Both the position numbers and the translations under genes were made by a program. The notes beneath the pieces were generated by a model. The model saw nothing but the letters and a program-made list of their open reading frames with translations, did not search any database and was not told the DNA's origin. From Gammaproteobacteria bacterium (GTDB taxonomy: Bacteria; Pseudomonadota; Gammaproteobacteria; JABDBA01), in contig JABDBA010000009.1 of the NCBI GenBank assembly GCA_013288885.1, positions 4,713-68,712 of the forward strand: 64,000 bases of DNA, written 5' to 3'. Below are positions 29,625 through 34,832 of this stretch, piece after piece. Numbering within the stretch: position 1 is the stretch's first letter; the number at the start of each line of letters is the position of its first letter.

Positions 29625-32600
29625 ATGGTCAAATTTTTATCGGATATAATCTCAAAGGCAGCTAGTGTTAACTTTTTAGATGGAGAAAGTACTATGTTAG
29701 GCATAAAAAAAACAGCAGAAAATCTCGTTGATAACGATTTATTACAACTTCATAGCTTAGGTTTACGCGCGCATACGGTTGATGAAAATACACCAGAAGC
29801 AACTGTTGAAGCTATCCGGCAAGAAATTCAAACTGCCCTATTCAATCTATACCAATTACATTGTAAAGGATTATTGTCTGCTAATTTCACCTCTCCTTTT
29901 CTTGGCATAAGCCCACGTTTATGTGACGGCAGTGGTGCAAATGATCTTTATGTAAGAATACCAACTAAAAACACTGATGAAAAAGATGCGCATGAAGAAG
30001 ATGATGAAGATGCAAAAGCAATTATGGCTCTGCTCAAAGCTACTAAAGAAGGTGAAAGTAAAGTATATGATGATCTATTTATAAAGTTCATCAAACGCCT
30101 ACGTATAGCAACGCCTAAAGCTATTGATTGCTTAAAAAATATTCCATATTACGAAAGATGGCCAATAATTATAGCCCTAGATTCAACGATAGTTATAAAA
30201 AAATTCCTTGATAAATTACTCTCTTTTTATCATATAGAAAACTTTAACTATTATGAAATGTTAAGAGCCGCCGAGGAAATTGATAAAATAGATTCGGTGG
30301 AAATCAAGAAACAATTCGTCAGCTTTTTAAAAAAGGTTTTAGAAAAATGGCTGTCAAATAAAGATGCCTCAAAAGATAACCCTTCCAATGAAGATGTCTC
30401 AGAAGATAACTCTTCCAATGTTGATGATCACTTCAGCTCGTTAAATGAAACCGGCTTGTTAAAACAAATCGGTAGAATGAGCAAACTTGTTGCCGAACCT
30501 GCTATTGTGAATGGATTATTTAAATTATTGGATCACAAAGACGCACGCATTCAATGCCAAGCCCTAGCAACAATCAGCCAGATCGCCCCAGAAGAAATGG
30601 CTGTTCCCAATGCCATGAAAAAGCTGCCTGAGTTTCTGTCAGATGAAAACACTCAATACATGGCAGTAGAAATAGTTTGCAGACTCGATCTCACGCTTGT
30701 CAGGTTAGATTCAAGCGTCATTGAAATATTATTTGAATTATTGAACGAGAAAATTCTATCGCCATGGGATCTTTTTGACGACTACGAAAGAGAGTCTATC
30801 GCAGCTATAATCATAAAGGCGATTTGTAAATTAGGTAAAGATGCCATAATAAAACTTTTAAAAATCTTAAATAAATACCTGGCTGATAAAGAAACTCAAG
30901 TTACAGCCTTGAAGCTAATCGCTTATATAGATGGAACAGAAGCCGACTCTAAAGACCTTATGGGTAGCTTAGAAAAATTATTATCAGACGAAGATAAGCA
31001 TGTTAAAAAATATGCCGTAGCAGCAATCGGTGCTTTGATGAATACCACCGAGCTTTCTGAATCTTTAACTACCAAATTTTTTGACACTTTAGAGAATTTG
31101 TTGCTAGATGAAGATGATGAGATCTGCTCTAGCGCTCTTGAAACAATTGAGAAGCTGGTCAAGAAGAAGAAGCCAATCAGAGGCGATGTCTTAGAAACAT
31201 TATGTCATTTCACTTCAAAAACTGATACTCAAAGTGCAAGTAATAATCAATACTCAACCATATTATCCATCATCCATGTGTTAGAGGCAGATCAAATCGT
31301 GCCCTCTGGTACGTTAATCGGCTTAATAAGCAATTATTTAAAAATTCCAACGGGTAAAACCTCGCTGCTTAACTTTAAGATTTACGAAATACTTAGTCGG
31401 CCTGAAAAAGCAGCAGTCACACCAGAATTTCTTGCTACATTAGCTCAGTTGCTGATGGATAAAAACGAAGATGTTCAAATCCAAGCAATACGTGCGATCG
31501 AAAGCATAGGCCCAGCAGCAGTCACAGATGATATTCGAGAGAAATTATGTGGACTCCTAATGAGCTCAAATCAAAGACTTAGACGCGTTGCCGCGATACA
31601 ACTTAGCAGTTTATTAGAAAAATGCTGTGCAACCGATGAATCCCATGTTCTAATTTCGCCTAGTTTTTTACAAGGCTTATTTCAAATACTAAGCAAACAT
31701 AAAGATGATAAAGTTCGATCAACTTTAATCAGCACATTTGCACACTTAGCTCCTTCGGTATTTGTTACTCATTTTGAGAAATGGATACATTCACCTTTAT
31801 TACCATCAAGCCCTGAAGCTCTTACTGCCTCTTTTGAAAAACTCTCTTATTTAGTTATGGGCGCTTATTTAAGCGCTAGTATTAGCTTGCAAGTGGGGTG
31901 GAATGTGAAAGAAGAAAGTTTTGTTGCACAAGTAGTTGTGGTTGAAAAATCCTATGAATTTACAATTTCGCCAAAACAAGCCCAAATATTAGTACGAATG
32001 GTTCCTGCAGTCATTAAGCAATTACAGAAAATTGGAGATTGTCAGGTAGATTTTCTGATAATACAAATGCAGGAATGGCCGCGGGTTGATAAAGATCAAC
32101 TGCTAAAAGAGCTTCGCACGATCGCATCAAATGCACTGCGAGTCGATAAAAGCGAAGGCGTATCTGTTGTTCCACCTCCTTTTGCTAGTTTCTCATCTTC
32201 AACGAGTACACCGACTAGTTCCACTGCATCTTCACAAACAACAGCAAGCACATCGACCAACGTAGAAAACCCAGCCGGTAACGATTTATTACAACTTCAT
32301 AGTTTAGGTTTACGCGCGCGTGAGATAGATAAAATGCCGAAAACCACTGCTCAAGCGATCCGGCAAGAAATTCAAACTGCCCTATTCAATCTATACCAAT
32401 TACATTGTAAAGGATTATTGCCTGCTAATTTCACCTCTCCTTTTCTTGGCATAAGCCCACGTTTCTGTAACGTCGGTCGTCTCAGTGATCTTTATGTAAA
32501 AATCATCAAAATCAAAAATACTGAGACAAAATATGAAAGTGGAAGTGATAGTGAAGATGAAGAACTTAGTCAACTTGTAGAATTCATCAAACACCTGCGA

Positions 32601-34832: not shown

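Follow-up and report, generated by a model that had tools for sequence, protein, structure and literature searches.

The 64,000-nucleotide (nt) stretch of a gammaproteobacterial genome analysed here (the window; positions 4,713 to 68,712 of contig JABDBA010000009.1, assembly GCA_013288885.1) contains a gene for a 1735-residue protein of HEAT-like repeats, referred to below as the HEAT gene. It occupies a single uninterrupted frame at 29625..34832 on the forward strand, with 0 in-frame stops vs. 53-176 in the five other frames. Its guanine-cytosine (GC) content is 0.376 and its third-position GC (GC3) is 0.29; the GC3 of housekeeping neighbours is 0.33-0.44. The protein consists of a leader, unit 1, unit 2, and a tail, the two units being collinear and ~825-850 residues long each. 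An initial annotation, made from the sequence alone, had described two paralogous halves in head-to-tail order, and self-alignment bears this out, giving two collinear units with 57% protein identity (457/800 aligned residues in a global alignment). The four parts assigned to each half, an N motif, a HEAT-like array, a C module, and a stretch rich in serine and threonine (S/T), were also recovered, with hidden Markov models (HMMs), Pfam, and exact repeats in agreement. The features of the gene are listed below, with residues numbered as amino acids (aa) and synonymous divergence between the units given as dS.

29625..29720 (+): leader of 32 aa, unique and unduplicated, delimited by comparison of the junction and flanks
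29709..30095 (+): unit 1 N motif, a post-NACHT helical linker (HMM envelope aa 29-157; core NDLLQ...ISPR at 29733-29918)
29733..29920 (+): N-block conversion tract, copy 1 (partner 32280-32467; 90% nt identity, dS 0.14)
30096..31769 (+): unit 1 helical/degenerate HEAT array, the diverged middle (Pfam HEAT_2, HEAT, Adaptin_N)
30354..30413 (+): tandem 30-nt duplication (SNKDASKDNP / SNEDVSEDNS) within an acidic 23-codon insert present in unit 1 only
31500..32255 (+): C-block conversion tracts, copy 1, at least two (partner 33972-34727), with a dip at ~31700-31790 between them
31770..32153 (+): unit 1 C module, a predicted small alpha/beta domain (HMM and AlphaFold2 model)
32196..32255 (+): S/T-rich stretch 1, aa 858-877, an interdomain linker, 100% identical to 34668-34727
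32256..32267 (+): probable duplication junction, in frame (…TCG ACC AAC GTA / GAA AAC…), placed by comparison of the unit boundaries
32256..32594 (+): unit 2 N motif (HMM envelope aa 878-990), containing the conversion tract 32280-32467
32595..34241 (+): unit 2 helical/degenerate HEAT array, 25 codons shorter than that of unit 1 (alignment, Pfam, and family repeat HMM)
34242..34625 (+): unit 2 C module (HMM match)
34668..34727 (+): S/T-rich stretch 2, aa 1682-1701, an exact repeat of stretch 1
34728..34832 (+): tail of 33 aa, SSSAASSQSSASDAGSAPWNKPRDTSPSPPAFKK, plus the stop codon; unique and unduplicated by comparison of the flanks

Exact repeats include NDLLQLHSLGLRA, found at aa 37 and aa 886, and SSTSTPTSSTASSQTTASTS, found at aa 858-877 and aa 1682-1701; a third copy of an S-rich 50-mer, 76% identical, lies in the tail at 34714-34763. 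Searches with Pfam matched HEAT_2 (PF13646) at 1e-34, with 119 bits vs. a cut-off of 27.7, and HEAT (PF02985) at 2e-33. Adaptin_N, HEAT_EZ, and Arm were also matched, and HEAT-type matches fall in both halves. An HMM of the 31-aa repeat of the family described below matches unit 1 at aa 292-313, 448-467, 485-504, 596-618, and 679-699. No NACHT domain was matched in the 1735-aa protein by Pfam or NCBIfam, and a motif scan of the same protein found neither a G..G.GK[ST] Walker A motif nor DGxDE. The ATG at 29625 lacks a Shine-Dalgarno sequence, and an in-frame ATG at 29694 (M24) has GGAG 8 nt upstream; a start at 29694 may give a protein of 1712 aa.

To place the repeated unit, a profile of the two units was searched exhaustively with HMMER against 1.84 billion representatives, giving 375 matches, and a census of modules was taken on the best 150; P-numbers (P0002, P0008, etc.) are labels of family proteins matched in this search. 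The best non-self matches, P0002 (2.9e-66), P0005, P0008, P0085, P0072, and P0129, are giant proteins of 1300-2650 aa. P0002, P0005, P0008, and P0129 contain Pfam NACHT together with HEAT_2, and precomputed Pfam assignments place NACHT in P0085 too. The N-termini of the four relatives that were scanned are variable, consisting of pentapeptide repeats with a coiled coil, ankyrin (Ank) repeats, or TIR_2.

Iterated local HMMs resolved two modules in these proteins. The N motif (…ELGLL.RC…IR..Q..LF.LYQL…LLP.NF.SP…SPR) is matched in the window protein at aa 29-157 (6e-29) and aa 878-990 (7e-28), and the C module (GAYLSG.IS..I.W…QGF..K..Y.F.I…QAQ.L…P.IIEQL) at aa 708-867 (4e-50) and aa 1532-1694 (1e-48). 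Each of 14 full-length relatives has a single N motif, with 385-427 aa separating it from Walker A in every case, and this constant offset identifies it as a conserved linker that ends the NACHT module. The C module is likewise single in 13 of the 14, at or near the C-terminus and mostly ending 2-40 residues from it; its presence in the fragment P0108 brings the relatives with a C module to 14 in all. DGxDE lies upstream of the N motif in all 13 full-length two-module relatives except P0051. Aligned pairwise with P0002 and P0008, the unit is collinear with both from N motif through HEAT to C module, at 37-49%, ~24%, and 31-40% identity, respectively, and the unit 1 N motif is 46% identical to that of P0002. 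The leader (aa 1-32) shows no similarity to the sequence that precedes the N motif in 14 relatives (z -1.2 to 1.4).

The unit thus spans the entire post-NACHT region of 13 full-length NACHT-HEAT proteins, in the same order. The window protein differs from these NLR-related bacterial proteins in having no NACHT domain, no Walker A/B motifs, and no N-terminal effector, and in carrying the sensor arm twice; the single unit placed 385-427 aa past Walker A, characteristic of the NACHT-HEAT subfamily, is absent from it. Compared with the STAND NTPase class, it has the C-terminal repeat sensor, twice and collinear with P0002 and P0008, and has no NTPase module. We have little doubt, on the strength of these sequence comparisons, that the repeated unit is homologous over its whole length, with its parts in matching order, to the post-NACHT part of the NACHT-HEAT family, and that the NACHT and effector region was lost. 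No trace of the relatives' N-terminus and NACHT, and no additional copy of either module, was detected by tblastn anywhere in the 64-kb window.

The S/T-rich stretch of the first half had been taken for a former C-terminus. The C module that precedes it is indeed normally C-terminal in the relatives, but in P0002 and P0008 an S-rich stretch follows the C module and links it to a further C-terminal domain. This position as an interdomain linker identifies the S/T stretch of the window protein as a linker too, one that hosts one of the duplication breakpoints.

In none of the other proteins among the best 150 of the 375 matches are the N motif and the C module both duplicated and Walker A and DGxDE both absent, as they are in the window protein. 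The new element is the identity of the unit, a NACHT-less, tandemly duplicated NLR-type sensor arm of which these 150 proteins include no other example. P0108 and P0143 were considered as further NACHT-less members and rejected, both being pieces of broken NACHT-HEAT genes with NACHT open reading frames (ORFs) directly upstream; unlike them, the HEAT gene has no upstream NACHT ORF. On contig Ga0558121_04243 (a JGI metagenome), two NACHT-HEAT genes are split into consecutive ORFs, by pseudogenisation or indel errors. A word-indexed search of 5.8 billion clusters with the whole protein returned only the protein itself, its 8000 candidates probably being filled by generic HEAT or S/T words. No relative was found with the two-unit alignment in 185,579 species genomes, and sequence searches of the PDB gave only designed ARM or pentapeptide repeat proteins. 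PADLOC-DB v2 (2023) offered generic HEAT models only: HEAT-ARM_XIII for the window protein (6e-11), HEAT_CxxC_PDDEXK for P0002, and none for P0008. Kibby et al. described bacterial NACHT proteins with HEAT sensors of an ‘antigen-receptor type’ and a ‘hybrid’ class that adds a small C-terminal domain. The NACHT-HEAT relatives fit this ‘hybrid’ sensor class.

An AlphaFold2 model of the C module, from an alignment of 14 sequences, has a predicted local distance difference test score (pLDDT) of 82.5 and a predicted template modelling score (pTM) of 0.75, and shows a helix, three strands, and three helices. Foldseek found no significant match to this model in PDB or BFVD (best E 0.025-0.03, template modelling score <0.3). 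The predicted topology resembles the alpha-beta3-alpha arrangement of double-stranded RNA-binding domains or SRP9/14, which we take as a lead only. The model of a whole unit, from an alignment of two sequences, gives an all-helical HEAT region with low confidence (pLDDT 55).

Similarity between the units is distributed as a mosaic. The N block (29733-29920 vs. 32280-32467) has 90% nt identity, with a dS of 0.14 and a ratio of non-synonymous to synonymous divergence (dN/dS) of 0.65. The C block (31404-32262 vs. 33876-34734) has 89% nt identity, dS 0.13, and dN/dS 0.83. The middle between the blocks has 58% nt identity, dS 0.98, and dN/dS 0.56. Corresponding positions are spaced 2547 nt apart in the N blocks vs. 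2472 nt in the C blocks, so unit 2 is shorter by 25 codons; both the divergence of the central arrays and this difference in length had been read correctly from the sequence. The initial annotation had called the two terminal blocks near-identical at the DNA level. At ~90% identity this holds in substance, but ‘near-identical’ is generous, as the C block is a patchwork of 65-100%. Within it, identity is 65-78% at 31404-31500, 90-100% at 31520-31700, 75-78% at 31700-31790, and 92-100% at 31793-32255, with 0 synonymous differences between the units at 31800-31920. The longest perfect run between the units is 92 nt, and the N block holds identical runs of 63 and 43 nt.

Codon usage at conserved positions separates constraint on the protein from homogenisation of the DNA. 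Residues identical in both units are encoded by the same codon at 248 of 261 positions in the blocks (95%; 48/51 in the N block and 200/210 in the C block) and at 119 of 184 in the middle (65%; Fisher p = 7e-17). Four-fold sites are identical at 121/129 in the blocks vs. 28/45 in the middle (p = 2e-6). Because protein constraint cannot yield this pattern of codon identity, the blocks must have been homogenised at the DNA level, and the synonymous homogenisation in discrete tracts, exceeding protein constraint, is what gene conversion leaves. With good confidence, then, the end blocks of the units are kept alike by gene conversion, as had been proposed, and the uneven identity of the C block indicates several conversion tracts. 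The homogenised blocks coincide with the two modules conserved across the family, which is expected because only slowly evolving segments stay competent for recombination.

Concerted evolution of tandem repeats by gene conversion is known from the repeats of bacterial surface proteins and from tufA/tufB. The HEAT gene resembles these cases in its DNA homogenisation beyond protein constraint, in its discrete tracts, and in the restriction to recombination-competent segments. It differs in that homogenisation is confined to the two end modules of a 2.5-kb unit and spares its 1.6-kb centre, leaving a conserved-variable-conserved mosaic within one ORF.

The accompanying proposal of diversifying change in the repeat array found no support. 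Along the halves dN/dS is below 1 in every region (0.56 in the middle, 0.65-0.83 in the blocks), and these region-wide values of 0.56-0.83 do not show diversifying selection, in a test of low power with a middle dS near saturation. Some 40-codon windows have dN/dS >1, up to 1.96, mostly from few substitutions and without computed significance. Indels between the units are all in frame and both units are open. Since the frame has been kept since a duplication old enough for a dS of ~1, both units appear to be under selection.

Homology between the units begins at 29721 in unit 1 and 32268 in unit 2 and ends at ~32261 and 34735, and only 6-9 nt, in frame, separate the end of unit 1 from the start of unit 2. 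The 9 nt ACCAACGTA (32259-32267) have no clear match to either flank, and at the junction (32256-32267) there is no remnant of a tail, stop codon, spacer, ribosome-binding site, start codon, or leader. A single internal duplication is the more parsimonious origin because the junction is clean, the leader and tail are unduplicated, and the full-length relatives have one unit. From the sequence of the junction we consider it likely that the gene arose by one in-frame internal tandem duplication rather than by fusion of two genes.

Fusion had been the initial proposal: two adjacent paralogous genes joined by loss of the first stop, through mutation or sequencing error, near 32200-32280. The position of the C module 2-40 aa from the C-terminus in most relatives does make the end of unit 1 resemble the end of a gene, and genes of this family can occur clustered. 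A fusion would, however, have to leave no more than 6-9 nt, in frame, from where sharing ends in the C block (~32261) to where it resumes in the N block (32268), and to have erased every vestige of the 33-aa tail, the stop codon, the DNA between the genes, the ribosome-binding site, the start codon, and the 32-aa leader. It would need a precise deletion and, in the second gene, an independent loss of the N-terminus and NACHT that ended very near the point where the first gene was truncated. With the clean junction, the unduplicated leader and tail, and the single unit of the relatives all pointing the other way, the fusion is improbable.

The similar dS of the N and C blocks (0.14 and 0.13) raises a second alternative, in which the tandem duplication is recent (dS ~0.13 throughout) and one HEAT middle was later swapped in from a third, diverged paralogue by double crossover in the N and C modules. 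A single recent event predicts just such equal values, and members of the family occur as several paralogues per genome or contig. Yet no donor is apparent. P0008, the only paralogue from the same sequencing run, was tried as a conversion donor and rejected, as DNA comparison of the gene with the P0008 locus shows no similarity, and neither middle has a close counterpart among the other proteins of 5.8 billion clusters. The patchwork of tracts in the C block also suits repeated conversion better than one event, and we regard a swapped middle as rather unlikely.

A single, older duplication would then imply the following history. An ancestral gene would first have lost the NACHT NTPase entirely, along with the effector region at the N-terminus. 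The truncated gene would then have duplicated ~2.5 kb in tandem, in frame and once, with breakpoints just upstream of the N motif and within the S/T linker. The duplication would be old (middle dS ~1), with both copies retained under selection. Intragenic gene conversion, in at least three tracts, would have repeatedly homogenised the end modules (dS ~0.13), and the HEAT arrays would have diverged beyond recombination.

The direct repeats had been flagged as an assembly hazard, and rightly so, as short-read contigs from Logan break at them. Repeats of 0.2 and ~0.75 kb at 90-100% identity could in principle have produced a collapsed, expanded, or mis-joined repeat, or a tandem joining of two strain variants. 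The independent Logan assembly of SRR8430286 has contigs identical to the window on both flanks, ending at 29843 and 34698, and these short-read breaks are the direct observation that an artefact would explain. To the base, however, they coincide with the limits of two perfectly matching runs, one of 63 nt (29814-29876) and one of 61 nt (34667-34727); a k = 31 graph must branch at runs of ≥31 nt, so both repeat copies are present in the reads and the breaks fall where two real copies predict. Moreover, the middles are only 58% identical, and hence two distinct sequences rather than a doubled pile of reads. The longest identical run (92 nt) is shorter than an ordinary read, the reading frame is intact across 5.2 kb, and the junction has its own unique sequence between unit-specific variants, which no assembler would be expected to create, although their linkage rests on the deposited assembly. 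An artefact is therefore very improbable; the locus is nonetheless prone to break or collapse in short-read assemblies.

The organism was placed by its GyrA, whose nearest named relatives are from Legionella and a Legionellales bacterium (70-72% identity), with environmental sequences reaching 85%. Judged from GyrA alone, it would represent a separate, deep-branching Legionellales lineage. The gene order gyrA-NUDIX-fadD-minC (window 19829-28338) is kept in two uncultured relatives with 80-82% identical GyrA. Past minC the order breaks in both, and rnhB, the toxin-antitoxin pair, the HEAT gene, and lpxB do not follow. A scan of the genome collection with LpxB gave homologues of ≤53% identity from unrelated Gammaproteobacteria and no orthologous locus. 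The housekeeping proteins of the window are singletons in clustering at 90% identity, except one that is shared only with 51-aa fragments.

Directly upstream of the HEAT gene lies a pair of genes on the opposite strand:

28922-29188 and 29175-29510 (-): toxin and Phd/YefM antitoxin (PF02604) pair

With a GC3 of 0.26-0.32, the HEAT gene and the toxin-antitoxin pair together make up a small, low-GC accessory islet in the chromosome, flanked by rnhB on one side and the lpxB-lpxA-fabZ-lpxD-skp-bamA cluster on the other, and have the look of an insertion. The HEAT gene stops 22 nt from the stop codon of the convergent lpxB. Scans for promoters and terminators gave no excess over shuffled sequence. 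Another giant eukaryotic-like repeat protein, of 1602 aa, with ankyrin repeats and a leucine-rich repeat (LRR) match, is encoded 24 kb from the HEAT gene (59186-63994, (-), GC3 0.26).

An intact family member occurs in the same sequencing run. The P0008 gene lies at 2338-10296 on Logan contig SRR8430286_179, which comes from the run that gave the contigs flanking the HEAT gene and likewise has a GC of 0.377. It encodes 2652 aa, comprising pentapeptide repeats, a coiled coil, NACHT, HEAT, and the C module, and very probably the same organism carries at least this one intact member. The N-terminal ~350 aa are conserved among P0008, P0002, and P0085 and have no Pfam or PDB match. Elsewhere, P0085 (Logan SRR21359471_6) adjoins an integrase and is followed by genes of an integrative and conjugative element (ICE), namely DUF3262, DUF3487, DUF2895, DUF3438, and TraC. 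P0002 (ENA ERZ25039482 contig_111849) also adjoins an integrase and is preceded by a 1267-aa protein of Sel1/tetratricopeptide repeats (TPR). Ga0558121_04243 also encodes U-box-Ank and Ank proteins and a deaminase of the OTT_1508 type.

Other parts of the window contain further genes of accessory character. A Schlafen/AlbA_2 protein (41712-42911, (-)) is encoded between the bamA cluster and a gene at 43587-44762, and an ATPase_2/AAA_14 protein (51603-52727, (+)) beside a MatE transporter; either could be of accessory or defence type, set as they are among housekeeping genes. At the left end, where GC is 0.34-0.38, 454-10196 (-) encodes FemAB/GNAT, two methyltransferases, a radical SAM/SPASM protein, asparagine synthase, two DegT aminotransferases, and an epimerase; this sugar-modification cluster is probably an O-antigen or glycan locus. 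The sole Rfam match in the window is a t44 RNA (RF00127, 58 bits) at 49489-49578 (-), upstream of rpsB.

With respect to function, the overall best explanation, which we favour by a modest balance of probability, is that the protein is a NACHT-less, gene-converted duplication of a sensor that acts as a non-signalling scaffold. Its two HEAT solenoids, each with an alpha/beta cap, would form a cytoplasmic binding scaffold, an expectation of low confidence. Having no NTPase or effector domain, the protein alone would be unable to signal like an NLR. The scaffold would bind the partner or ligand of the sensor arms of NACHT-bearing paralogues (e.g., P0008) and would thereby buffer, decoy, or tether that system. 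A decoy or modulator function as such is a tentative proposal. More doubtful still is its specific form, in which a sensor-only derivative of an NLR acts in trans on P0008-type paralogues by sequestering the trigger, capping the sensor or C module, or setting a threshold. As a variant of this, Legionellales may export the sensor arm into an amoeba host.

The general logic of the parent family is that of Avs proteins and eukaryotic NLRs, whose STAND NTPase switch lies between a variable effector at the N-terminus and, at the C-terminus, a sensor of repeats by which the trigger is bound. The window protein departs from these systems in keeping the sensor only; moreover, its repeats are HEAT-like rather than TPR or LRR, and the NTPase of its relatives is of the NACHT type and outside the Avs clades. 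Truncated NLRs of plants and the CARD-only and pyrin-only proteins of mammals retain one module, do not signal alone, and compete for partners. By analogy, such competition would be the mode of action of the window protein. The known derivatives mostly keep the signalling (effector) domain, however, whereas the window protein keeps the sensor. We know of no described bacterial counterpart of truncated-NLR decoys.

Several observations weigh against the scaffold and the history proposed for it. No orthologue was found in the databases searched, so the order of truncation before duplication and the age of the duplication lack a phylogenetic check. The dN/dS of 0.56-0.83 amounts to weak constraint and would fit a decaying or rapidly re-purposed gene. 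The origin of P0008 in the same run is not strict proof of the same genome, and no conserved gene neighbourhood informs function. No PADLOC model fits the NACHT relatives, and a defence role for the family is an extrapolation from other bNACHT clades. Finally, a secreted effector would fit equally well with the low GC, a giant Ank/LRR protein close by, and membership of the Legionellales.

The weak constraint is also what a decaying NLR-like relic with no present function would show. The NACHT and effector parts are gone, the first ATG has a poor Shine-Dalgarno sequence, and broken genes of the family occur elsewhere. A relic is nevertheless hard to reconcile with 1735 stop-free codons at 37% GC, where the other frames contain 53-176 stops, or with the preserved frame and exclusively in-frame indels of both units since a duplication with a dS of ~1. 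We consider loss of function improbable.

The main alternative is that the protein is an effector translocated by the Dot/Icm type IVB system, whose two HEAT arrays would bind host (amoeba) proteins; this is the host-interaction surface of the initial annotation. The organism belongs to the Legionellales, an order of intracellular bacteria to which Dot/Icm is common. The gene lies in a small accessory islet of low GC3, 24 kb from the 1602-aa Ank/LRR protein, and members of the family share contigs with U-box-Ank, Ank, and Sel1 proteins. Its C-terminus is rich in small polar residues (S/T/A/P) and has F at position -3. The last 30 residues, however, have no glutamate-rich E-block, the tail containing no glutamate at all, and no dot/icm gene lies within the 64-kb window. 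The unit, furthermore, normally follows a NACHT NTPase with TIR-type and other N-termini, near integrases or ICE genes, a signature of intracellular conflict. An effector is possible but unlikely, on a par with the decoy or modulator function, and the rest of the probability falls to other functions or to none. Family homology points to an intracellular immune or conflict role at least as much as to host manipulation.

Among the effectors that Legionella and Coxiella deliver by Dot/Icm are proteins with eukaryotic-like repeats (Ank, LRR, Sel1, ARM/HEAT). The window protein shares with them a Legionellales host, the form of a large repeat protein, a low-GC accessory site, and an Ank/LRR neighbour; it differs in having no E-block and in having NACHT proteins, not known effectors, as its nearest homologues. 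Eukaryotic-like repeat effectors of Legionella and Coxiella are among the subjects reviewed in PMC7542358.

The evolutionary processes behind the HEAT gene are ordinary ones. Whatever its function, the gene is a clean case of conversion and divergence partitioning a duplicated unit, in which the slow modules recombine and the repeat array escapes. Its analysis also defines two uncharacterised NACHT-HEAT modules in Legionellales-type genomes, the post-NACHT linker motif and the alpha/beta C-terminal domain. If the decoy or modulator function is true, the HEAT gene and P0008 would constitute a simple two-gene system for studying partner recognition by a HEAT sensor and a small C-terminal domain. 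NLR-related families of bacteria would then spawn trans-acting regulators by domain loss and duplication, as do the NLRs of plants and animals.

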